Source of the DNA: Candidatus Methylomirabilis oxygeniifera
GTDB lineage: Bacteria > Methylomirabilota > Methylomirabilia > Methylomirabilales > Methylomirabilaceae
Assembly: GCA_000091165.1 (NCBI GenBank)
Contig: FP565575.1
Location: forward strand, 2,720,855-2,752,854
Direction of reading: 5' to 3'
DNA length: 32,000 nucleotides
The notes below the pieces were generated by a model. The model worked only from the letters and a program-made list of their open reading frames with translations. It made no database searches and was not told where the DNA came from. Both the position numbers and the translations under genes were made by a program. How positions within the stretch are numbered: position 1 is the first letter of the stretch; every line of letters starts with the position of its first letter. Positions 8,067 to 32,000 of the stretch are shown here, piece by piece.

Positions 8067-8267
8067 ATGACAACTGTCGAGTCGATTGAGCGCGCTATCG
8101 AGCAGCTTTCCCCCGACGAACTCGTCAAGTTGCGACGCTGGTTCTTGGAGTACGATGCCACCGCTTGGGATGCTCAGATCGAGGCAGATGCTGCTGCCGG
8201 AAAATTCGATGCGTTAGCTAAAGAGGCTTTAGCTGAGTATCACAGCGGTAAGGCGCGCGAGATTTGA
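8067..8267 (+). CDS. Type II antitoxin (small acidic helical protein)
   Basis: 66 aa with a GAGGAGG Shine-Dalgarno 6 nt upstream. Its stop overlaps the start of the downstream toxin gene. The sequence LSPDELVKLRRWFLEYDATAWDAQIEADAAAGKFDAL is typical of partners of RelE/ParE-superfamily toxins. Confidence 0.7.
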   Translation: MTTVESIERAIEQLSPDELVKLRRWFLEYDATAWDAQIEADAAAGKFDALAKEALAEYHSGKAREI

Positions 8268-8524
8268 GGCATTTCACGGCGAGTCAATTCTGGCGCTGTT
8301 TCGATGCTCTGCCAACCGCCATCCAGGATCTCGCCCGACGCAACTACGCTCTTCTCAAGCAGAATCCGACGCATCCATCCCTACAATTCAAATCCGTGTG
8401 CGGCGGACGCTTCCGTAGCGTTCGAATCGGTAATCATTACCGTGCCCTTGGGCTGCCAGTCCCAGAGGGAGTGCAGTGGTTCTGGGTCGGCCCGCACGCC
8501 GAGTACGACAAGTTCTTTAGCTAA
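8264..8524 (+). CDS. RelE/ParE-superfamily type II toxin
   Basis: 86 aa with a TTG start overlapping the antitoxin TGA. Conserved blocks HPSLQFKSV, FRSVRIGNHYRALG and WFWVGPHAEYDK. Confidence 0.75.
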   Translation: MRHFTASQFWRCFDALPTAIQDLARRNYALLKQNPTHPSLQFKSVCGGRFRSVRIGNHYRALGLPVPEGVQWFWVGPHAEYDKFFS

Positions 8525-8682
8525 CACTCGGCTGGATCGGTGGAATGGCGCGACAGCCGAGCGACAAGGACAAGCCATAAGGCCGTCTTTGGTGCGCCGG
8601 GACGAAGGATCGGAAAAATCGGAAGGGTTGGTTCTTGCGCGTATCGGTCTGCTGCGGGGGTGTTGGAATCTGAAACGACAGT

Positions 8683-8799
8683 TTATCCCAGCCAGATGAG
8701 CAGCTTGACAATGTACTTCATTGCGATCATGGACGCTAGAAACATGACCGCCCCTAAAACTAAATTCACATTGATGTTTCGGTGCTTTTCCGGCTCCAT
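8683..8799 (-). CDS. Possible 38-aa single-TM peptide (MEPEKHRNINVNLVLGAVMFLASMIAMKYIVKLLIWLG)
   Basis: Not in the ORF track because it is too short. ATG at 8799 preceded by GAGGAAGAGG, 46 nt downstream of the glutaredoxin-like stop. Charged N-terminus plus one hydrophobic helix. AT-rich codons are atypical for this window. Confidence 0.3.
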   Translation of the reverse strand: MEPEKHRNINVNLVLGAVMFLASMIAMKYIVKLLIWLG

Positions 8800-8845
8800 A
8801 CCTCTTCCTCACTGAGACCGACGACCGTCGGCGCCTCTAGACTGC

Positions 8846-9061
8846 TCAGGTTCCGCCAAATCCGACGGTGACTTTGCCCTTCTCGACAATAACCGGGACA
8901 TCACGTGAGCCTTTCGATAACTCCAACATCTGTGCGAGCGCCTTCGGGTCCTGCTTGACATTGAGGTAGGTGAACGGGACCTTCCGCCTGGCATAGTCCT
9001 CACGGGCTGCCGAGGTATAGGGTCAGGTATCCTTCCCGTAGATGACGACCGGTTCGTCCAT
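8846..9061 (-). CDS. Glutaredoxin-like (thioredoxin-fold) protein with in-frame UGA at the redox-motif position; probable selenoprotein
   Basis: ATG 9061 preceded by GGAGGAGG. Hand translation gives MDEPVVIYGKDT-[TGA 9023-9025]-PYTSAAREDYARRKVPFTYLNVKQDPKALAQMLELSKGSRDVPVIVEKGKVTVGFGGT, with stop TGA at 8846-8848. The TGA is exactly where Grx/NrdH-like proteins carry the first Cys of CPYC/CPYT. Confidence 0.7.
8992..9019 (-). promoter_or_regulatory. Candidate bacterial SECIS hairpin
   Basis: The mRNA UAUA-CCUCG...GUGAGG-AC-UAUG begins 4 nt after the UGA. Lower stem UAUA/UAUG, 2-nt bulge, upper stem CCUC/GAGG, with the apical region about 16 nt from the UGA. Folded by eye only. Confidence 0.45.
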
Positions 9062-9102
9062 CTGCCTCCTCCAATCTTTCGGGTCCGTCTGATTCCAGCG
9101 CG

Positions 9103-9447
9103 TCAGACCCGCGTCGTAAATCGTTCGGCCTCTGTGGTCAACCGCTCGTAGGCAAGCTTGATGTCGCGGATCTGCGGGTACAGCTCCTGGATCTTCTCGT
9201 GGGGGAGCGGGATGATCCGGCTCAGTTCAGTCAGCCGCTCCCCAACCAGCTTGGCCCGTCGAAGGATATCGAGCTTTTTATCGGCCGGCGGGCTCAGCGC
9301 TGCCCCCTCCAGGAGTACAAGCATCCCGTCCTCATCTTGAGCCCGGCACAGCTCGTCCAACTGCTGCGCCTGGGTCTCATTGAGACCGCTTTCCCGCAGG
9401 GCATTCAACGCCTTCATCCGGTCGATTCGATAGCGGATGTCGAGCAT
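9103..9447 (-). CDS. Hypothetical helical protein (114 aa)
   Basis: Clean ORF directly upstream of, and co-oriented with, the glutaredoxin-like gene. I recognise no family motif. Confidence 0.6.
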   Translation of the reverse strand: MLDIRYRIDRMKALNALRESGLNETQAQQLDELCRAQDEDGMLVLLEGAALSPPADKKLDILRRAKLVGERLTELSRIIPLPHEKIQELYPQIRDIKLAYERLTTEAERFTTRV

Positions 9448-9701
9448 TCTCTCTCCTTACGCGCGCGCCGTGGATGTATCAGGCGCAATCCGGCACTATC
9501 TCACACCTCTGCGCCAAAGCCGAATGCAGGGGGTCGGGTGTGAGTCTATCATCTGACTCTATGGCCACTCTATATCAGCAGAATTTCGACGTCTTGTCAA
9601 CGGTCATGTGGTCTTTTCATCCCGCGTGGTCGCTATCCGGCCATGATATGATGTGTTATCATAATGTACTACGGGATAGCGAAGGAGGAATCGGACCCGA
9701 C

Positions 9702-10394: not shown

Positions 10395-11054
10395 TTGGCC
10401 ACCAACCGGCAGATCACTGAAGTCCTGCAGCAGGTCCGACATGCGATCAGCGTGTGGGAGCCCGCCGTCGTGGGCAAGATCGCCGAGGACTCCCGCGATC
10501 CGTTTCGGGTCCTGATCTCTTGTATCCTGAGCCAGCAGACCAAGGATCAGATTACGGGTGAAGCCTCGGAGCGGCTGTATCGACTTGCCGATCGACCCGA
10601 CACGATACTCGCGCTGAGTGAGCTACAGATCGCCAGAGCCATCTACCCGGTCAGTTTCTATAAGACGAAGGCTCGAACCATCCGCAAGGTCTGCCAGGAT
10701 CTGCTCACTCGTTTCGATGGGCGCGTCCCCGATACAATCGAGGCCCTTCTTAGCCTCACCGGCGTCGGCCGGAAGACCGCCAACCTTGTCGTAACAGTCG
10801 GTTACAGAAAGCCGGGGATCTGCGTTGATACGCATGTCCATCGGATCTCGAATCGCTGGGGTTACGTCAGCACCAGGACCCCCGAGCAGACCGAGATGGC
10901 CCTCCGATTGAAGCTGCCGAAGCGGCATTGGATCTATTACAATGACCTGTTGGTCCCGTTCGGTCAGAACCTCTGCCGACCGATCTCTCCCTTTTGTAGT
11001 CGCTGCCCCATCGAGCGCTGGTGCGCCAAGGTCGGCGTGGCGATGCATCGCTGA
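10395..11054 (+). CDS. nth: Endonuclease III (HhH-GPD with 4Fe-4S cluster loop)
   Basis: LISCILSQQTKD, HhH LTGVGRKTANLV, VDTHVHRISNR, and a C-terminal CxxxxxxCxxCxxxxxC (CRPISPFCSRCPIERWC). The TTG start is uncertain. Confidence 0.9.
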   Translation: MATNRQITEVLQQVRHAISVWEPAVVGKIAEDSRDPFRVLISCILSQQTKDQITGEASERLYRLADRPDTILALSELQIARAIYPVSFYKTKARTIRKVCQDLLTRFDGRVPDTIEALLSLTGVGRKTANLVVTVGYRKPGICVDTHVHRISNRWGYVSTRTPEQTEMALRLKLPKRHWIYYNDLLVPFGQNLCRPISPFCSRCPIERWCAKVGVAMHR

Positions 11055-11557: not shown

Positions 11558-12790
11558 TCATTCATATCGTAGCGCCTCAATCGGGTCCAAAAAGGCGGCC
11601 TTGCGGGCCGGGTAGTAGCCGAAACCGATCCCTACCAACGCCGAGAACACAAAGGCCGTCAGGACGGCGCCTCCGCTGATCAGGGTCGGCCACATTGCAA
11701 CGTAGGAGATTAGGATCGAGAGCGAGAGACCAAGCCCGATCCCGATCAGACCGCCGATGAGCGATAAGGTAACTGCCTCAACGAGGAACTGTGTCAGGAT
11801 GTCGCGCGTCCTGGCGCCCACCGCCAATCGCAATCCGATCTCTCGCGTCCGCTCCGTCACGGACACCAGCATGATGTTCATAATGCCGATTCCGCCCACG
11901 ACCAGCGAGACGGAGGCGATGGCGCCCAGCAGGATCGACATCACGCGAGCCGATTGCTCCTGAGCGCCAAACACCTCCACGAGATTCCGTACGGTGAAGT
12001 CATCATCTTCATCCGGTTGCAGGCGATGTCGCTGTCGGAGGAGGGCCACCACCTGTTCTTGGGCCTCCTGCATCATCGTTGGGCCGCGAGCCTGCACCAC
12101 GATCGCCCCCACCGCCCTGGCGTTCGCGTGACTCACTCCGAGCACCTTCCGCTTGGCCGTCGAGATAGGAATTAGGATGACATCATCCTGATCCTGTCCC
12201 CAGGCCGATTGACCCTTTGGAGCCAGGGTCCCAAGGATGGTAAACGGCACTCGCTTGATCCTGATAATCTGTCCGACGGGGTCGTTGCCGCCGAACAGAT
12301 TATCCACGACCGTATTGCCGACAAGCGCCACCTTCGTCGCTCCGTCGACATCCTGCCAGGTGAACGGCCGACCATTGAGGATCTGAAAGTCGCGGATCTC
12401 GATGTATTCCGGCGTCACCCCCTGGATCACCGTAGACCAGTTGTCGTTACCAAGGACGACCTGTCCGGTTCCACGGATACTGGCGGCCGTCAACGCCACC
12501 GCTGGGCACTCGGCGGCAATCGCCTTGGCATCATCTTCCGACAGTGTCATGATTGACCCGGCGCCAACACGCATCCCGCTACTGGTTGTACTACCGGACA
12601 GGACGAGGATCACATTGCTGCCGATACTTCGGATCTGCTCCTGAATGAAGGCAGTGGCCCCGGAGCCTACCGCCACCATGGCGATCACAGCCGCCACGCC
12701 GATGATGATCCCCAGCATCGTGAGGGCCGATCGAAGCCGATTGACCCTGAGCGCTCTCAAGGCGATCCTGACATTGACTAAGAGATTCAT
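11558..12790 (-). CDS. MacB-type ABC transporter permease (MacB periplasmic domain + FtsX)
   Basis: 410 aa with an N-terminal TM, a large periplasmic domain and three C-terminal TMs. It ends ...YYPARKAAFLDPIEALRYE, typical of MacB/LolCE permeases. Confidence 0.92.
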   Translation of the reverse strand: MNLLVNVRIALRALRVNRLRSALTMLGIIIGVAAVIAMVAVGSGATAFIQEQIRSIGSNVILVLSGSTTSSGMRVGAGSIMTLSEDDAKAIAAECPAVALTAASIRGTGQVVLGNDNWSTVIQGVTPEYIEIRDFQILNGRPFTWQDVDGATKVALVGNTVVDNLFGGNDPVGQIIRIKRVPFTILGTLAPKGQSAWGQDQDDVILIPISTAKRKVLGVSHANARAVGAIVVQARGPTMMQEAQEQVVALLRQRHRLQPDEDDDFTVRNLVEVFGAQEQSARVMSILLGAIASVSLVVGGIGIMNIMLVSVTERTREIGLRLAVGARTRDILTQFLVEAVTLSLIGGLIGIGLGLSLSILISYVAMWPTLISGGAVLTAFVFSALVGIGFGYYPARKAAFLDPIEALRYE

Positions 12791-12799
12791 AGACCGGCT

Positions 12800-13543
12800 C
12801 TACCCCGCTTCGTCCGGCAGGCGCTGCTGCAACTCATGGAGCGCGACTCTTGGCTGCTCCACCGCCTCATCCCGCAGTAGTCGGCCGTCTCTGAAAAAGA
12901 GTATGCGACCGGCGTAGGCCGCGATGTCCGGCTCATGGGTCACCAGAACAATGGTGATCCCCGCCTCCTTATTCAGCCGCTGGAATATCGCCATAATCTC
13001 TGAACTGGTTCTCGAATCGAGGTTGCCGGTGGGCTCATCCGCCAGGATGATCTGTGGCTCATTGACAAGGGCCCGCGCAATGGCTACCCGCTGCTGCTGC
13101 CCTCCGGAAAGCTGGTTTGGATGATGCTCTGTCCTATTCTCAAGACCAACCGCCTGGAGGGCGTCAAGCGCTCTGGCGCGCCGCTCGCGGGCCGCAGCGC
13201 CATTATACAGGAGCGGAAGTTCCACGTTCGCTAAGGCGCTGGTCCTGGCCAGGAGGTTGAAAGTCTGAAAGACAAAGCCGATCTTCTTATTCCGGAGAGC
13301 GGCCAGCTCATCTCGATTAAGCCGACCCACGCTGACGCCGTCAAACCGGTAGCTGCCGGACGTCGGTTTGTCCAGGCAACCCAGGATGTGCATTAAGGTC
13401 GATTTGCCGGACCCGGAGGAGCCCATGATCGCCACAAACTCCCCTCGTTCAATCAGGAACGAGACGCCCCTCAGCGCCTGGACAGTCACATCGCCCAGAC
13501 GGTAGTCCTTTATCAAGCTGTCGATCTCAATCAGCGCTGCCAC
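12800..13543 (-). CDS. ABC transporter ATP-binding protein (MacB/LolD type)
   Basis: Walker [10 protein letters not shown], signature [15 protein letters not shown], Walker [13 protein letters not shown], and H-loop VTHE. GTG start with a GGGGAGGG RBS. Confidence 0.93.
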
Positions 13544-13552
13544 GACCCTCCC

Positions 13553-15001
13553 CTAGAACCTCGGACCCCGCTGGCCGAACGGCGGAGCCGACCCACCCGC
13601 AGCTTGACCATTTTTCGATGCGGTCCCCACAATGACTTCGTGTCCTCCATCAAGGTTGCCTTCGATGATCTCGGTGAAACGCTCATCGGCAAGACCCAGC
13701 CTGACGGTGACCGGCTGAGGTTGCTTATCCTTACCAAGAATCCAGATGGTCTGATCCCGTCCGGTGTTCTGAGTATCGCGGATATCATGCGCCCCCTGAC
13801 CTGTCGGCCGCCCCTGTGGGCTTCGGGCGGATACATTGCCTCCTTGATTCGGCAGTTCCTTCAGATCCGGGGGCCGAAACCGCAGGGCCGCATTGGGGAT
13901 CTTCAGGACATTCTCGCGCCTGTCCACCAGGATCCTGACATTCGCCGTCATGCCCGGGAACAGTTTGAAGTCCGGATTGGCGACCCCAATCACGGCATTG
14001 TAGGTGATCACGTTCTGGACGTTCATTGGGGCCTGCCGGATCTGGACGACCTTTCCCTTAAAGATCTCACCCGGGAAAGCGTCGACAGTGAAGGTTGTGT
14101 CCTGTCCGACTCGAATCCGTCCAACGTCGGCCTCATCCACGTTCGTGTCCACCTGCATCTTGGTCAGGTCCTGTGCGATCAGGAACAGGGTCGGGGCGGA
14201 GAAGCTGGCGGCTACCGTCTGCCCGACATCCACATTCCGTGAGACCACGGTCCCGTCCACCGGTGCTCGAATATAGGTATGATCGAGATCGACCTGCGCC
14301 TGCTTCAGGGCCGCCTCGTTCTGCTTGACCTGCGCGTCCGCTGCGGCGATCTGGGCCATGGTCACTTCGTGCTGGGCCTGCGCGGCGCGAAGGGAATATC
14401 CCGCAGCCTGGTCCTGGGCCTTCGCGGCATCGAGGGCTGCGATGTTGGAATCGTAGGTCGCCTGCGCCGAATCCCGCTCCTCTGCCGAGATGCCGCCTTC
14501 TTTGAAGAGGTTGATCCGGCTCCTTAGTTTGATTTGGGCATCCAGGACGGCGACCTTCGCTTTTGCCGCATTCGCCTTTGCGACTTCCAGTGAAGCCTTG
14601 GCGTTGGCAATGTCGGCCTCGGTTTTCTGGAGCATCGCCCGAGCGTTGAGGACGGCAGCTCGGGCGTTGTCCAAGTTGCCCTTCGCCTGGTTCACCTTGG
14701 CCTCAAAGATCTCCGGATCGATCCTGGCCACCAGTTGCCCTTTCTTGACCTTCGTATTAAAGTCGGCGTGGAGTTCCTTGATGTTCCCGGAGACCTGACT
14801 GCCGACCTGAACGGTGACGACAGCGTTAGGATTGCCGGTTGCGGAGATCGTTGCCTCAATGTCACCCCGCCCAACCGTCGCCGTCCGGTACTCAACCCGG
14901 CTCTGCCCACGCAGGTATGCCCAGCCGCCCAGACCGGACAGCGCGATCAGGCCGACGATGACCAACACCACCTTCGCTTTTGGCATCTTCATCGATATCA
15001 C
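13553..15001 (-). CDS. MacA/HlyD-family periplasmic adaptor (membrane fusion protein)
   Basis: N-terminal TM, lipoyl/barrel motifs (VQVGSQVSGNIKEL, GQLVARIDP) and a long Ala/Gln-rich coiled-coil hairpin. GTG start overlaps the TolC stop (GTGA). Confidence 0.9.
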   Translation of the reverse strand: MISMKMPKAKVVLVIVGLIALSGLGGWAYLRGQSRVEYRTATVGRGDIEATISATGNPNAVVTVQVGSQVSGNIKELHADFNTKVKKGQLVARIDPEIFEAKVNQAKGNLDNARAAVLNARAMLQKTEADIANAKASLEVAKANAAKAKVAVLDAQIKLRSRINLFKEGGISAEERDSAQATYDSNIAALDAAKAQDQAAGYSLRAAQAQHEVTMAQIAAADAQVKQNEAALKQAQVDLDHTYIRAPVDGTVVSRNVDVGQTVAASFSAPTLFLIAQDLTKMQVDTNVDEADVGRIRVGQDTTFTVDAFPGEIFKGKVVQIRQAPMNVQNVITYNAVIGVANPDFKLFPGMTANVRILVDRRENVLKIPNAALRFRPPDLKELPNQGGNVSARSPQGRPTGQGAHDIRDTQNTGRDQTIWILGKDKQPQPVTVRLGLADERFTEIIEGNLDGGHEVIVGTASKNGQAAGGSAPPFGQRGPRF

Positions 15002-16608
15002 AGTTCGAGATGATTTGTTTCCAGGATCGTGCCCTTCTGAAGCTCGAGATTGGCCAGATCCTGGTTGTAGGTGGTAATCGCCTGGATCTCGCTGGCCTGG
15101 GCCGCCGCGAGGTCTCGCTGAAACGACAGGACGTTGAAGGTCGTGGTGACGCCGGCCTCGAGCCGCTTCTGTTCGACCCGCAGTTGCTCCTCAGCCAGCG
15201 TCCGAGCCGCTCTGGTGGCCTCCACGCGGCGGACATCGGCCTCCACGCGGCGGACCGCCTCTCGAACCTGAGAGATGATCTGGCGCTTGAGATTCAGCAG
15301 GCTCGTCCCGGCCTGAGCGTGGCTGAGCTTTGCCTGATTCAACGCCGACCTGGCGGAGCGGTTGCCTAACGGGTACGTCAGGACCAGGGCTGCCGACCAC
15401 TGCGTAAAGTCGCCTGAGGTCAACCGATCCAGATCGCCGCCTGCGCTGCCGTTGAGGCCGTTGAGTCCGACATTGCCCTGCAATTGGAGGCTGGGCAGCA
15501 ACTGGTTCCGCTTGATCCGCAGATCGAGATCGGTGTTTTGTAACGTCAGCTTGGCCGCGGCGTACTCCGGCCGCTTTTCGAGCGCCTCCTGAATGCTGGC
15601 ATCCGTATTTATCCGAATCTCTTCAAATGGCAGCCGATCGGTCGGAAGAATCGTTCTGGCCCAGATTCGCTCCCCATCGGGGAAGTTGATGATGAGCGTC
15701 AGTTGATCTTCGGCGTCCTTGACGGCCTTCTCGGCCAGGATCACGTCCTGGACCCTGGCTGCGGCCTGGGCCTCCGCCTGCGTCACCTCAACCGGCGCTG
15801 CAACACCGGCCCGCACCCGTGCCTTGTTGAGGTCCTCCAGTTCCCTGGCCAGGCGCAGCGAGCGCCTCTGGACCTCCAGATTGTCAATGGCAAAGACGAG
15901 ATTCCAGTAGGCGTTGTGAACGTTGGTAATGACCTGATTGGCCTGTTGACGGAGTTGCGTGACCGAGATCGCCTGATCGTTCCTGGCGATCTTGATCGGC
16001 GCAGTATTCACATCCATTCCGAAGTTCTTGAGAAGATCCTGGGTAATGCTGAGGGTCAGGAAACTCTTGTAGTACGGGTTAAGGGTTGCAAATTGCGAGT
16101 TGGTCTTAAATCGGTTGTTAGTCATGCTCAATGTATAACTGGCGCCGAACGGTAGCTTTTGAACGAGGGAGGTATTGACATCTCGGTTCTCTGTTGTGTT
16201 GACCGTTGCTCCTGCGAGCTGTGTTGCCGTCGGTGAGACGGTTCTGTTCGCGTCAAGCGTGAGAGAGAAGGTCGGATCAAAGACCGCCTTCGCGATACTG
16301 ATGCTCTCGGATTTCACCCTTGGGTTGTAGGCGGCGATAGCAATATCAAGGTTATTCTTCAGCGCCAGCACAACCGCTTCGCGGAGCGCGAGGCGAAGCT
16401 CGCCTACGTCGCCTGATTCATCGGTAGTCGATTGATCCTGGGGCGCCGCGGAACCGACCGATTGCGCCAGATCGCTAGAGAGTTCGACGCGACTCTGCGC
16501 TAGAGGGGGTAATAGATCGTCCTCCGCGTTCGCTATAACCGCATGCAGCACAGCCAGACAGATCACCGACATCGCCCATACACATACCTTGCGCTGTAGC
16601 GCCGTCAT
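14998..16608 (-). CDS. tolC: TolC-family outer membrane efflux protein
   Basis: 536 aa with a signal peptide and two OEP-type repeats (LREAVVLALKNNLDIAIA..., LQEALEKRPEYAAAKL...). Strong AAGGAGGGAG RBS. Confidence 0.9.
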   Translation of the reverse strand: MTALQRKVCVWAMSVICLAVLHAVIANAEDDLLPPLAQSRVELSSDLAQSVGSAAPQDQSTTDESGDVGELRLALREAVVLALKNNLDIAIAAYNPRVKSESISIAKAVFDPTFSLTLDANRTVSPTATQLAGATVNTTENRDVNTSLVQKLPFGASYTLSMTNNRFKTNSQFATLNPYYKSFLTLSITQDLLKNFGMDVNTAPIKIARNDQAISVTQLRQQANQVITNVHNAYWNLVFAIDNLEVQRRSLRLARELEDLNKARVRAGVAAPVEVTQAEAQAAARVQDVILAEKAVKDAEDQLTLIINFPDGERIWARTILPTDRLPFEEIRINTDASIQEALEKRPEYAAAKLTLQNTDLDLRIKRNQLLPSLQLQGNVGLNGLNGSAGGDLDRLTSGDFTQWSAALVLTYPLGNRSARSALNQAKLSHAQAGTSLLNLKRQIISQVREAVRRVEADVRRVEATRAARTLAEEQLRVEQKRLEAGVTTTFNVLSFQRDLAAAQASEIQAITTYNQDLANLELQKGTILETNHLEL

Positions 16609-19211: not shown

Positions 19212-19958
19212 TCAAGCCTGTAAGTTTACCAGAAAATATGTATCTCCACTGCCTGTCTTATCGCCTAAGGTCTCAAGCAGTGTCGATATATAGTCTTTGA
19301 TGTGGCTTGTTGTATCTGTGGACGAGCTACCGTCGGATGACTGGTTGCTCAGCAAATCAAGCAGAGATGACAACCGGTCCGAACCTATATTCATTCCATA
19401 GGTGGACATGGCATTTTGCATGCCAGCCGGCGGCGCGGGTGCGTTATCCTTCATGAAGCTGTTCAACTCATCCGCGCTTAATGAGCCGTCGCCATCCGTA
19501 TCGTATACGGAAAAAACTTTGTCTCCATCTATGGAGTCGCCTTTTCTTTCCCTAATATTTTCGGCGAAGACTCCAAATTCCGACTTACTAATGCCGCCGT
19601 CGGTATCGGTGTCAATCTTACTGAACAGTCCCTCAAGCCGGCCCTGCATTCCCCGACCTTCCATCGGCCCATTCATTGGAGGCGGCGCGGGTGCGTTATC
19701 CTTCATGAAGCTGTTCAACTCATCCGCACTTAATGCGCCGTCGCCATTTGCATCGTACTTGGAATAAACGTCTTCAACGTTCGGTGAACTTCCGCTCATC
19801 TCCGACATTTTCTTCGCAAGGTCCGAGAATTCGGTCTTGTCGACCCCGCCGCTGCCGTCGCTGTCGATCCTGCTGAACATCCTTTCCTTGAACTGCTGCA
19901 TCGACTGGACGTTCATTTGGTTGCCGAAACTGAACGAACTACTGATACTGCTTATCAT
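19212..19958 (-). CDS. Four-EF-hand calcium-binding protein with internal duplication
   Basis: Loops DSDGSGGVDKTE, DANGDGALSADE, DTDTDGGISKSE and DTDGDGSLSADE. GGAAGGGAGG RBS. Ser-rich N-terminus without an obvious signal peptide. The local DNA is AT-rich. Confidence 0.85.
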   Translation of the reverse strand: MISSISSSFSFGNQMNVQSMQQFKERMFSRIDSDGSGGVDKTEFSDLAKKMSEMSGSSPNVEDVYSKYDANGDGALSADELNSFMKDNAPAPPPMNGPMEGRGMQGRLEGLFSKIDTDTDGGISKSEFGVFAENIRERKGDSIDGDKVFSVYDTDGDGSLSADELNSFMKDNAPAPPAGMQNAMSTYGMNIGSDRLSSLLDLLSNQSSDGSSSTDTTSHIKDYISTLLETLGDKTGSGDTYFLVNLQA

Positions 19959-20591: not shown

Positions 20592-21800
20592 TTATTCATA
20601 TCTCAGTGCCTGGATAGGATCCAGACGTGCGGCCTGGCGAGCGGGAAAGAAACCGAAGACGATGCCGACCGTCGCGGAGAAGACGAACGCCACAACGACG
20701 ATGCCCGGGTTGAAAATGAACGGCACGTCAAGCGCAATAGCGCCGGCGCCGGCCGTCGCCAGCCCGAGCCCAATGCCGACCAGGCCGCCCAAGGACGAGA
20801 GCACCACCGCCTCTACCAGAAACTGCATCAGCACTTCCCGCTCCAGGGCCCCGATGGCCAGCCGAATGCCGATCTCCCGCGTCCGCTCGGTCACCGACAC
20901 CAACATGATGTTCATGATGCCGATCCCGCCCACCAGCAGACTGACCGTTGCGACCGCTCCCAGCAGCGCCGTGAGGACCTGGGTGGTTCCGGCCAGGGTG
21001 CTGACGAGCTGTTGCATGTTGAGCACGTGAAAGTCATCGTCCTTGCCCGGTGTAATCCGGCGGCGTTCCCGCAGCAGCCGCTCGATGTCCCGCTGAACCT
21101 TTTCCGTGGACACCCCATCTCGTGCGGAGACTGAGATCGCGCCGACATCCGTGTTCCCCGCGATGCGCCGCTGCAGCATGCGCAAGGGTACAAGAATCAT
21201 GTCGTCCTGATCTATGCCGAAACTCATCCGCCCCTTCTTGGCGAGGACGCCGATCACCTGGCAGGACAGCTTCTGCAGGCGAATTGTCGCACCCACCGGG
21301 TCCTGACCGCCGAAGAGCTCCCTCCGCACCGTCGCCCCGAGGATGCACTGGGCGCTGCCTGCTCGGAGGTCCTCATCGGTGAACTGGCGGCCGCCGGCCA
21401 GCGGCCAGTTCCGTGTCTGGAGGTAGGTGTTGACGCTGCCGGTGATGGTGGTGGACCAGTTCGCGCTCCCCGAAATCGCCTGCATCGTCCGGGTGGCGAC
21501 GGGAGCCACAGCCAGGAGCCCCGAGACCTCCCTGGCGATGACCTCGGCATCCTCGATCTTGAACATGGCGGCACTCTCGCGCGCGCCGCCTGGGCGCGGC
21601 CCCTGTCCAGGCATCACCTCAACGAGGTTGGTGCCGAGGGTCGCCACATCGGCCGTCACCTTCGTAGTCGCGCCGGCCCCGATGGTCACCATCGTGATGA
21701 CAGAAGCGACACCGATGACGATGCCAAGGATAGTCAGCGAAGAACGCAGGATGTTGCGGCGGATCGCCCTGAGCGCCAAGAGAACAATACTCCAGAACAT
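20592..21800 (-). CDS. MacB-type ABC transporter permease (paralog 2)
   Basis: 402 aa with the same architecture and C-terminus (...FFPARQAARLDPIQALRYE) as 11558-12790. Confidence 0.92.
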   Translation of the reverse strand: MFWSIVLLALRAIRRNILRSSLTILGIVIGVASVITMVTIGAGATTKVTADVATLGTNLVEVMPGQGPRPGGARESAAMFKIEDAEVIAREVSGLLAVAPVATRTMQAISGSANWSTTITGSVNTYLQTRNWPLAGGRQFTDEDLRAGSAQCILGATVRRELFGGQDPVGATIRLQKLSCQVIGVLAKKGRMSFGIDQDDMILVPLRMLQRRIAGNTDVGAISVSARDGVSTEKVQRDIERLLRERRRITPGKDDDFHVLNMQQLVSTLAGTTQVLTALLGAVATVSLLVGGIGIMNIMLVSVTERTREIGIRLAIGALEREVLMQFLVEAVVLSSLGGLVGIGLGLATAGAGAIALDVPFIFNPGIVVVAFVFSATVGIVFGFFPARQAARLDPIQALRYE

Positions 21801-22489
21801 CAGACCGCTCCCTCTTTTCGGCCGTCCGGTTCGATCCGGCCGTCCCGGAAGTGGATGACTCGCCCTGCGAAGGCGGCCATGTCCGCTTCATGGGTCACCA
21901 GGATGATGGTGATGCCGCGCTCTTCATTGAGCGTGCTGAGCAGCGTCATGATCTCCTGGCTCATGGCGGAATCCAGGTTGCCTGTCGGTTCGTCGGCGAA
22001 CAAGACTGCCGGATCGGTCACGATGGCTCGGGCAATAGCCACCCGCTGCTGCTGCCCCCCGGAGAGTTCAGCAGGTGTGTGCGATTCCCAGCCACCCAGC
22101 CCGACGGCCTCCAGTGCCTCCCTGGCGCGTCTCCGACGCTCCCCGGACGGTACGTTGCGATAGAGTAAGGGCAGCTCCACGTTCTCGAGTGCGGATGTCC
22201 GGCTCAACAGGTTGTAGCCCTGGAATACGAAGCCGAGATAGTGGCGGCGAAGAAGCGCGCGCTGGTTCCTCGTCAGGGTGCCAACATCGAGCGCTTGGAA
22301 CTGATAGACGCCGGATGTCGGTGTATCGAGGCATCCCAGGATATTCATGCACGTGGACTTCCCCGATCCGCTTGGTCCCATCACGGCGACAAACTCCCCC
22401 TGAGTAATCAGGAGATCAATCCCGCGTAACGCGTGCACGGCAGCGTGGCCCGTGCCGTACACTTTGGCCACGGCCGTCAACTCAATCAT
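21800..22489 (-). CDS. ABC transporter ATP-binding protein (paralog 2)
   Basis: Start at ATG 22489 (MIELTAVAKVYG), overlapping the MacA stop (ATGA). Walker [25 protein letters not shown], Walker [12 protein letters not shown]. The track's extension to 22624 lies inside macA. Confidence 0.92.
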   Translation of the reverse strand: MIELTAVAKVYGTGHAAVHALRGIDLLITQGEFVAVMGPSGSGKSTCMNILGCLDTPTSGVYQFQALDVGTLTRNQRALLRRHYLGFVFQGYNLLSRTSALENVELPLLYRNVPSGERRRRAREALEAVGLGGWESHTPAELSGGQQQRVAIARAIVTDPAVLFADEPTGNLDSAMSQEIMTLLSTLNEERGITIILVTHEADMAAFAGRVIHFRDGRIEPDGRKEGAV

Positions 22490-23811
22490 CGGTCGGCACT
22501 CATCGCATCGACCGCGAGCGGCATTCCCGGCTCGATCTCCCCACCCGTGATCTCCGTCATAATCCCGTCGGTCACGCCGGTGGTAACCGGGATGGCGACA
22601 AGCTGTCCATCGCGGAGCATCCACACCTGCGGCCGCTTGGAGTCGCCTGTCGCGTCCCCGCGCGTCTTGGGAGGCATGGGCGGTGGGCCCGGGAGGATCT
22701 TTCGCAGGAGCCCGCCGCCGCTGGTCGGCGCCTGCTGCTGTCCTGCCTGGGGCGAAAAGCGGAGCGCCGCATTTGGGACCAGCACGGCGTTCTCAACCTT
22801 CTGAACGGTGATGACCGCCGTCGCCGTCATCCCCGGCCGGAGGGATAGGTCCGAGTTGTCCAACGTCAACACGGTCTCGTACGTCACGACACCGCTCACC
22901 GTCTTGGCGCCGTAGCGGACCTGGGTGATCCGCGCCAGAAAGGTCCGGTCCGGAAAGGCGTCAACGGTGAAGGTGGCCGGCTGGCCTGCTCTGACACGCC
23001 CCACGTCGGCCTCATCCACGTCGACGTGGAGTTCCATTTTTGCCAAGTTTTCCGCCAGTGTAAAGAGCACCGGAGCCTGGAGTGTGGCGGCCACCGTTTG
23101 TCCCACGTCCACATTGCGGGACACCACGGTGCCGGCTACGGGAGCGCGAATGGACGTGTGGTCCAGATCTACTTGGGCCTGGGCCACGGCCGCCCGCTTC
23201 TGATCCACCTGGGCCCGAGCCGCCTCGAACTGGGCCTGGGCGGCGCGACGCGACGCCACCGTCGCGTCGTGGGTGGTCTGGGCCGTGTCCCGCTCCTCCC
23301 GGGAGATCCCGCCCTCTTGAAACAACTGTACCCGCGAGTCCCGCTTCACGCGGGCGTCACGCACCTGCACGTCGGCGTTGACCACGTCGGCCTCGGCCCG
23401 AGCCACGGCGGCCTGGGCGGCCTGAAGGTCCGCCTGGACCTGGGCCAGCTTGGTCTCGAAGAGGTCCGGATCGATGCGGGCGATAAGCTGGCCCTTCTTC
23501 ACGGGGGAGTTAAAGTCGGCCTTCAACTCCCTGATGATCCCTGAGACCTGGCTGCCCACCTGCACCGTAGTCACAGCGTTGAGGGTCCCGGTCGCCTTCA
23601 CGGTGACGGTCAGCGATCCCCGGCGCACCTCTTGGGTCTGGTATTGTGGCGCCTGGGTAGCGCGAGTGGCCTGCCAGGCTGCTATGGCATACATCACGGC
23701 GATCCCGAGAAGCAGCGCAACGAGAATCTGGATCAGGCGGTATCGCCACCTCGACGATCGCGGTCTGCCCACTACCCGAACGATATCCGGCTCTGGCTTC
23801 GCTTTGTCCAT
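22486..23811 (-). CDS. MacA/HlyD-family periplasmic adaptor (paralog 2)
   Basis: N-terminal TM, VQVGSQVSGIIREL, GQLIARIDP, a coiled-coil hairpin and a beta-barrel region. It parallels 13553-15001. Confidence 0.9.
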   Translation of the reverse strand: MDKAKPEPDIVRVVGRPRSSRWRYRLIQILVALLLGIAVMYAIAAWQATRATQAPQYQTQEVRRGSLTVTVKATGTLNAVTTVQVGSQVSGIIRELKADFNSPVKKGQLIARIDPDLFETKLAQVQADLQAAQAAVARAEADVVNADVQVRDARVKRDSRVQLFQEGGISREERDTAQTTHDATVASRRAAQAQFEAARAQVDQKRAAVAQAQVDLDHTSIRAPVAGTVVSRNVDVGQTVAATLQAPVLFTLAENLAKMELHVDVDEADVGRVRAGQPATFTVDAFPDRTFLARITQVRYGAKTVSGVVTYETVLTLDNSDLSLRPGMTATAVITVQKVENAVLVPNAALRFSPQAGQQQAPTSGGGLLRKILPGPPPMPPKTRGDATGDSKRPQVWMLRDGQLVAIPVTTGVTDGIMTEITGGEIEPGMPLAVDAMSADR

Positions 23812-31991: not shown

Positions 31992-32000
31992 CAATGGTCA

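Follow-up and report, generated by a model that had tools for sequence, protein, structure and literature searches.

The minus strand of the window analysed here, a stretch of 32,000 nucleotides from the genome of Candidatus Methylomirabilis oxyfera, carries what is, on comparative sequence evidence, a genuine selenoprotein gene with two recoded TGA codons (positions 8837-9061). The gene is very probably the Ca. M. oxyfera ortholog of UXX-star selenoprotein family 1, a family with two selenocysteine (Sec) residues, and as such it is already known, for its family is curated in NCBIfam, has a two-Sec entry in the literature (PMC13188914) and occurs here in a recorded Sec-using organism. An earlier note on this stretch, made from the sequence alone, had proposed that a glutaredoxin-like gene is decoded here with Sec, U standing in the place of the redox Cys, and this reading is upheld in its essence by the TGA/Cys column of the homologs, by dN/dS and by a selenoprotein model that scores above its cutoff. 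In its detail the reading was incomplete, and it lacked novelty; it had not recognised that a second Sec codon is present, where the frame truly stops, exactly where the first SECIS-like element lies, or that the family was already curated.

The selenoprotein gene and its locus

The features of the locus are collected in Table 1. Direct reading bears out the minus-strand frame described in the earlier note, with its strong ribosome-binding site and ATG at 9061, as well as the in-frame TGA at 9023-9025 that gives T-U-P-Y-T; the ORF track offers at this site only an out-of-frame ORF of 64 aa, seen at 8809-9003, as had also been remarked. When TGA is read as a stop, the minus-strand frame from the ATG at 9061-9059 translates as MDEPVVIYGKDT, a stop, PYTSAAREDYARRKVPFTYLNVKQDPKALAQMLELSKGSRDVPVIVEKGKVTVGFGGT and a second stop. 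This frame had been taken to comprise 71 codons and to end at 8846, but the TGA at 8846-8848 is conserved in all 154 homologs and is followed by GCA GTC TAG. Because this second TGA is conserved, and because the match to the whole family profile (1-70/70) needs the last three residues, we place the gene at 8837-9061 with two TGAs that would be recoded. The minus-strand translation then predicts a protein of 74 aa, MDEPVVIYGKDT-U-PYTSAAREDYARRKVPFTYLNVKQDPKALAQMLELSKGSRDVPVIVEKGKVTVGFGGT-U-AV, with ...GFGGT-U-A-V at its C-terminal end.

Table 1. Features of the selenoprotein locus, in window coordinates.
Feature	Position	Strand	Remarks
Complete CDS, predicted UXX-star family 1 selenoprotein	8837-9061	minus	74 codons + TAG stop at 8837-8839
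Start codon ATG	9059-9061	minus	direct reading
Shine-Dalgarno GGAGGAGG	9065-9072	minus	3 nt 5' of the ATG; direct reading
First predicted Sec codon, UGA1 (residue 13)	9023-9025	minus	U of the motif U-P-Y-T; takes the place of the nucleophilic Cys in the glutaredoxin fold
Second predicted Sec codon, UGA2 (residue 72)	8846-8848	minus	followed by GCA (Ala), GTC (Val), TAG
Putative SECIS-like hairpin for UGA1	8987-9015	minus	within the CDS; +11 to +39 from the U; MFE -10.7 kcal/mol
Putative SECIS hairpin for UGA2	8814-8837	minus	3' UTR; core 6-bp helix at 8817-8832
Hypothetical gene of 114 aa, upstream	9103-9447	minus	ends 41 nt before the selenoprotein start
Predicted single-pass membrane peptide of 38 aa, downstream	8683-8799	minus	ORF
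Shine-Dalgarno GAGGAAGAGG of the 38-aa peptide	8801-8810	minus	4 nt past the foot of the UGA2 hairpin

The locus has the same sequence, base for base, in 10 independent assemblies, which rules out sequencing error as the source of the TGAs. More widely, the ENA record 'Methylomirabilis_oxyfera_contig_6' and NCBI GCA_009026205.1 both agree with the window at every one of 19,447 bases, and both encode identical neighbouring proteins. In GCA_009026205.1 a 71-aa gene has already been called at this site, with UGA1 read through and the stop set at UGA2.

As judged from substitution rates within the genus, purifying selection acts on the codons 3' of UGA1: dN/dS amounts to 0.06-0.20 for codons 14-71, which lie between both UGAs, and to 0.07-0.21 for the whole gene when it is compared with 10 orthologs. 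A decaying pseudogene, in which a former Cys-glutaredoxin had acquired a nonsense mutation, would be in keeping with a gene that standard six-frame ORF calling misses and with the unremarkable z-score of the UGA1 hairpin, yet its probability is close to nil when set against the low dN/dS 3' of the first TGA, the same TGA in 113 homologs that span at least eight phylum-level groups, the identity of the gene in 10 assemblies and the strong ribosome-binding site. Neither frameshifts nor extra stops were seen; the earlier note had named such lesions in close relatives as signs of a decaying pseudogene, and the comparative data speak against that reading.

TGA terminates 15 of the 27 confidently identified genes of the window, with family matches that run end to end, and hence the standard code holds in this genome. 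A genome-wide or local code change, by which UGA would stand for a standard amino acid (Trp, Gly or Cys), could invoke two database homologs (P0011 and P0019) that have been called with TGA as Trp. It is nonetheless exceedingly improbable in view of these terminating TGAs, of the aligned residue, which is Cys (the classic Sec/Cys pair) and never Trp or Gly, of the SECIS-type hairpins 3' of both codons, and of the record of the organism as a Sec user (Peng et al. 2016, PMC5029168). The same study, in which the Sec trait was defined by searches for SelD, SelA and SelB, credits Ca. M. oxyfera with 6 known selenoproteins (Table S2 therein).

Within the window, Rfam at gathering thresholds gave no match and ARAGORN found neither tRNA nor tRNA-Sec. 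Neither a tRNA nor any of selA, selB, selC and selD was found in the window or in the ~7 kb beyond its right-hand end, a region that holds dnaA and other housekeeping genes, and a scan of positions 8500-9700 for consensus promoters and terminators gave no match.

Family assignment

Profile searches were run with U replaced by C in the 74-aa product. The NCBIfam equivalog model NF041114 (UXX-star selenoprotein family 1) is matched over its full length, 1-70/70, with 124.7 bits against a cutoff of 72; the score is 116.8 bits, with a match that ends at position 67, when the last three residues are removed, and 111.4 bits when X is set at both Sec positions. The product also scores above the cutoffs of the parent model, NF041212 (Uxx-star glutaredoxin-like (seleno)protein; 107 bits, cutoff 66), and of the Pfam Glutaredoxin model (PF00462; 44.5 bits, cutoff 22.9). 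Weaker matches, all below cutoff, were obtained with NF041211 (65.8 versus 100 bits), NF047338 (58.9 versus 97) and NF045501 (69.1 versus 325).

In a 2026 review (PMC13188914) the family NF041114 is entered under 'UxxT, 2 Sec', and its other name, 'Distant Grx-like protein 1', is credited there to Zhang & Gladyshev 2008. All tested features are alike in the family and in the gene described here (profile, U-x-x-T, U-x-x-stop, a length of ~70-74 aa and the glutaredoxin fold), and no difference was found; the tail is U-A-V in this case, the commoner family tail being U-G-V. A glutaredoxin-like scaffold and a C-terminal U-x-x-stop are also shared with UXX-star families 2 and 3 and with the HUGP/GUXX-star fusion. 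Family 2 is described as having one Sec, within GxGU, and no UxxT is given for its N-terminus (PMC13188914).

With classical glutaredoxins, NrdH and YruB the gene has in common the PF00462 fold, the nucleophile position and the cis-Pro strand VPVI, but classical glutaredoxins bear C-x-x-C where this gene bears U-x-x-T. Identity as a classical YruB (44.3 bits against a cutoff of 88.55), Grx3 (42.5 against 90) or NrdH (27.5 against 85.75) was rejected. The nearest solved structure is Grx1 of Clostridium oremlandii (PDB 7c10/7c12). The alignment with 7c10 (E = 2e-6) stops at residue 67 of the 84 of that protein, with 5 residues of the query remaining, and the last ~17 residues of 7c10, presumably its C-terminal helix, are absent from the selenoprotein, which has the Sec-bearing tail instead.

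Conservation of the two Sec codons

A scan of genomes yielded 80 loci, 77 of them with complete genes, from Methylomirabilota, Acidobacteriota, Planctomycetota, Thermodesulfobacteriota, Myxococcota (Anaeromyxobacter), Binatia and others, and a scan of metagenomes added 77 further genes, for a total of 154 homologous genes, 148 of them unique. The alignment of U with the catalytic Cys of homologs, a check proposed in the earlier note, is confirmed in this collection, with TGA in 113 and TGC or TGT in 41 of the 154 genes at the first position. The two sets contribute 74 TGA and 3 TGC/TGT among 77 genes (genomes) and 39 TGA and 38 Cys codons among 77 (metagenomes). The fourth residue of the motif is Thr in 148/148 unique genes.

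The second position, on the other hand, is never Cys: it is TGA in 154/154 genes (77/77 in either set) and is always followed by exactly two codons, conserved as [G/A/E]-[V/I], and a stop. Across the aligned genes, the predicted N-terminal Sec is thus interchangeable with Cys and the predicted C-terminal Sec is not. No correlation was found between the residue after Sec72 and the presence of Sec or Cys at position 13.

These data bear directly on the possibility that UGA1 alone encodes Sec and that the TGA at 8846-8848 is a true stop, for a protein of 71 aa. This is exactly the product called in GCA_009026205.1, and public databases hold many relatives of 68-72 aa that end in ...GFGG[T/S]. Sec insertion, moreover, is never fully efficient, and in the cell a share of the chains probably terminates at UGA2. 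We nevertheless consider a single-Sec protein very unlikely. Ordinary stops vary, and the terminal stop of this very gene is TGA in 32, TAG in 29 and TAA in 16 of the 77 genome-set genes, whereas UGA2 is invariant and is always trailed by two conserved codons; NF041114 includes the three extra residues, which raise the score from 116.8 to 124.7 bits; and a SECIS-type hairpin lies at the right distance in 126 of 146 unique genes. The truncated database entries are explained by gene callers that stop at TGA: 26 of the 28 database proteins examined have CPYT and end in ...G-[T/S] at the second TGA, and the other two are P0011 and P0019, with W at both positions. Taken together, the comparative and dN/dS data make each of four alternatives very unlikely: a pseudogene, TGAs that arose as sequencing errors, an altered genetic code, and termination at 8846.

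SECIS elements

The outer 3 bp of the putative SECIS element for UGA2 begin with the final base of the TAG, and its GGUC tetraloop, at 8823-8826, occupies positions +23 to +26 from the U; a G-containing apical loop at ~16-37 nt from the UGA, which is the criterion for a SECIS, was thus found. The tetraloop is comparable in position with the apical loop of the Escherichia coli fdhF SECIS, in which G23 and U24, counted from the U of UGA, are contacted by SelB, but the UGA2 element, unlike that of fdhF, lies wholly 3' of the stop, in untranslated RNA. To survey the element, sequences were folded one by one with dinucleotide-shuffle and offset controls, and a locus was counted when a stem of 5 bp or more closed a loop that contained GU or GG at +18 to +30. 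Of the 76 genome loci, 67 qualify; the expectation from the shuffles is 4.5, and the control offsets give 0-7. The unique genes that carry the hairpin comprise Sec-forms and Cys-forms alike.

The stem sequences vary between taxa, and a seed of 21 GGUC-loop hairpins displays compensatory changes in 7/7 pairs. The covariation score of this seed, an optimistic figure because the seed was chosen for pairing, is 0.725; shuffles reach 0.21 and slid partners no more than 0.15. When a covariance model built from the seed was run over 450 kb, its 23 best matches all fell at the UGA2 site, and its match in the window (8815-8834) scores 24.1 bits. The only comparable off-target match (L074:427-446), located within a GGDEF ORF and with no UGA, was set aside as a chance hit. 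RNAalifold gave no consensus for the MAFFT alignment of the region 3' of UGA2, because MAFFT cannot align stems that diverge to this degree.

The element of UGA1 is harder to prove, embedded as it is in conserved coding sequence. The stem-loop that the earlier note had placed at 8992-9019 was rejected as the best structure, for it reaches only -3.7 kcal/mol, against -10.7 for the hairpin at 8987-9015, and its covariation is no better than that of slid-partner controls; the RNA folding that the note had suggested 3' of UGA1 thus does reveal a hairpin, at a different position from the one foreseen. The minimum free energy hairpin has an interrupted stem and an apical loop, G23-U24-G-A, at 9000-9003, and its energy z-score is -0.5. 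Its fixed-column covariation is weak, the upper mini-stem being 93% paired, and no column-conserved structure was found 3' of UGA1, where RNAalifold gave no consensus on the MAFFT alignment. The want of convincing fixed-column covariation is explained by the lower stem, which shifts register between lineages. In this shifting, interrupted stem the element is unlike that of E. coli fdhF; the two are alike in G23-U24, which we take to be the position of the SelB-contacting apical-loop bases in fdhF and which is here under synonymous-site constraint.

This constraint is apparent in codon choice. For the Arg codon that supplies positions 22-24, 62 of 78 genes use CGU, as compared with 21 of 340 other Arg codons of the same genes and 15% of the Arg codons in the long ORFs of the loci. 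Among the 148 unique genes, the Sec-forms have CGU in 84/111 cases and CGC in 0/111, versus 12/37 and 19/37, respectively, in the Cys-forms (nominal Fisher p of 6e-6, with kinship ignored). Synonymous constraint bears on G23-U24 and C21 in the Sec-forms and is relaxed in the Cys-forms, and the CGU/GCC bias is linked to the presence of UGA1. Since the CGU bias is held in the Sec-forms and lost in the Cys-forms, the constraint on G23-U24 travels with the UGA, and this synonymous evidence is what chiefly speaks for the putative UGA1 element.

Proposed mechanism

The gene product would be a truncated glutaredoxin-fold protein of 74 residues with two recoded UGAs. UGA1, served by the interrupted hairpin within the CDS, would put Sec at the nucleophilic position of U-x-x-T, a motif that would hold no resolving Cys, given the invariant Thr at its fourth position; UGA2, served by the canonical GGUC-loop SECIS past the TAG, would put Sec three residues from the C-terminus. 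In ordinary glutaredoxins the GG turn borders the active-site groove and the chain continues past it into a last helix, but here the chain would end a few residues after the turn. Because the GG turn borders the groove, the tail can presumably reach residue 13. A flexible G-[T/S]-U-x-x tail could then fold back onto the active site, and Sec72 would pair with Sec13 as a selenenylselenide, or with the Cys13 of relatives as a selenenylsulfide. From these considerations a Sec13-Sec72 redox couple appears likely.

The nearest mechanistic analogy for residue 72 is provided by mammalian thioredoxin reductase, the Gly-Cys-Sec-Gly tail of which bears a mobile near-C-terminal Sec and swings to a buried redox centre. 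Thioredoxin reductase differs, however, in its unrelated flavoprotein fold, in its eukaryotic 3' UTR SECIS machinery and in the partner of its Sec, which is the adjacent Cys in that enzyme and would be a distant N-terminal Sec in the protein described here.

Alternatively, both residues might form a two-selenolate site for a metal or metalloid. That the selenols of this same family 1 protein act mainly as metal or metalloid ligands (Hg, As, Cu) or as a selenium carrier, and not as a redox couple, is possible but on the whole doubtful. The C-terminal Sec that is never Cys suggests a chemistry unavailable to sulfur, and the Sec residues of the family have been considered as potential metal ligands, or else as contacts for unknown substrates (PMC13188914). 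Nonetheless, the neighbours of the gene are housekeeping genes, with no recurrent metal-resistance genes among them, and the protein shares with thiol-disulfide oxidoreductases its fold, its cis-Pro motif (VPVIV) and the place of its nucleophile.

For the family at large, the combination of an exchangeable N-terminal and an obligate C-terminal Sec offers a clean, testable hint at mechanism. Given that none of the 148 unique genes has Cys in place of the C-terminal Sec, the tail selenol might perform an essential chemistry beyond the reach of sulfur, such as a very low-potential Se-Se or Se-S relay, or the carriage of selenium or a metalloid; otherwise, UGA2 might make translation of the 38-aa downstream peptide selenium-gated. 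We hold this pair of conjectures to be improbable. In the latter, SelB binding or the passage of ribosomes through UGA2 could gate translation of the peptide in Methylomirabilis, a coupling that is conceivable because 4 nt separate the hairpin from the Shine-Dalgarno sequence of the peptide.

Neighbouring genes and annotation

The three-gene minus-strand unit put forward in the earlier note stands as far as the common strand is concerned, but the arrangement is restricted to Methylomirabilis. The upstream 114-aa ORF, which has no Pfam match and no family assignment, adjoins the selenoprotein gene in 10-11 of the 77 loci, all of them from Methylomirabilis, and its dN/dS is 0.21-0.41. The 38-aa peptide is conserved (..LLASMFAMKYV.KLLIWLG) in the 6 closest relatives only (6/77 loci). 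By their conservation, both are judged to be real genes. Over the 77 loci, the neighbours are unrelated housekeeping genes (thioesterase, MFS transporter, NDK, deformylase, MutY/Nth-type glycosylase, ABC/MacB), and no functional clue was found in gene neighbourhoods across phyla; the largest neighbourhood cluster was discarded as an artefact of antisense ORFs in high-GC DNA.

The gene is invisible to ordinary ORF calling, and this has consequences for annotation. The correct product would be 74 aa with two U, and not the 71 aa of GCA_009026205.1. Among relatives, all 26 standard-code Cys-forms from public protein sets end at the C-terminal UGA and so lose their only Sec. These 26 proteins bear either no name or the names 'glutaredoxin' or 'glutaredoxin 3'.

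Genomic context of the UXX-star gene

Across the 77 complete UXX-star loci of the genome scan, the annotated neighbour that recurs most often is a HhH-GPD DNA glycosylase of the Nth or MutY type, which lies in the neighbourhood of the selenoprotein gene in 14 loci, 8 of them outside Methylomirabilis. Closer to the gene and on its own strand lie two small reading frames. The Shine-Dalgarno of the first, a predicted 38-aa membrane peptide, is GAGGAAGAGG; because it starts only 4 nt past the SECIS hairpin of the C-terminal UGA, translation of the peptide might possibly be coupled to selenocysteine decoding. The second, a 114-aa hypothetical protein, is under purifying selection (dN/dS 0.21-0.41); it returned no match in a Pfam search and is confined to Methylomirabilis, apart from one weak, non-adjacent match in another scanned locus (L027).

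Convergent with the selenoprotein unit run two small overlapping ORFs that probably constitute a type II toxin-antitoxin pair, the 86-aa product matching PF24732 at 27.4 bits (cutoff 24.4). On a larger scale, dnaA is located just to the right, which places the window beside the likely chromosomal replication origin region. Of the two MacA/MacB-type efflux gene sets that the window also carries, one is accompanied by a TolC-like outer-membrane gene and has an ECF sigma factor close by; the other adjoins a CpxRA-like two-component pair.

Features surrounding the UXX-star gene (window positions unless a locus is given)
Feature	Position	Strand	Remarks
66-aa ORF	8067-8267	+	overlaps 86-aa ORF
86-aa ORF, ParE-like toxin	8264-8524	+	PF24732
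38-aa peptide (predicted single-pass membrane) with Shine-Dalgarno	8683-8810	-	kept in 6 closest Methylomirabilis relatives
114-aa hypothetical protein	9103-9447	-	
HhH-GPD glycosylase	10395-11054	+	neighbour of UXX-star gene
MacA/MacB-type ABC efflux sets (two)	11558-16608; 20592-23811	-	
EF-hand calcium-binding protein	19212-19958		
dnaA	L091:5268-6620		L091 extends past the right-hand end; about 2-3 kb past position 32000
HhH-GPD glycosylase	L054:2439-3848		another UXX-star locus

Database annotation and SECIS model matches

All 26 standard-code relatives with Cys at position 1 examined in public protein sets (68-112 aa) are truncated at the C-terminal UGA and thus lack their only selenocysteine. 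Their entries are unlabelled or named 'glutaredoxin' or 'glutaredoxin 3', P0022 alone being assigned to UXX-star family 1. Two relatives called with TGA as Trp (P0011 and P0019) show W at both selenocysteine positions.

The SECIS2 covariance model, built from GGUC-loop hairpins 3' of the C-terminal UGA, gave a single off-target match of comparable score (22.5 bits; L074:427-446, minus strand, in another scanned locus). Because it falls within an ORF encoding a GGDEF domain and no UGA precedes it, it is a chance GC-rich palindrome.
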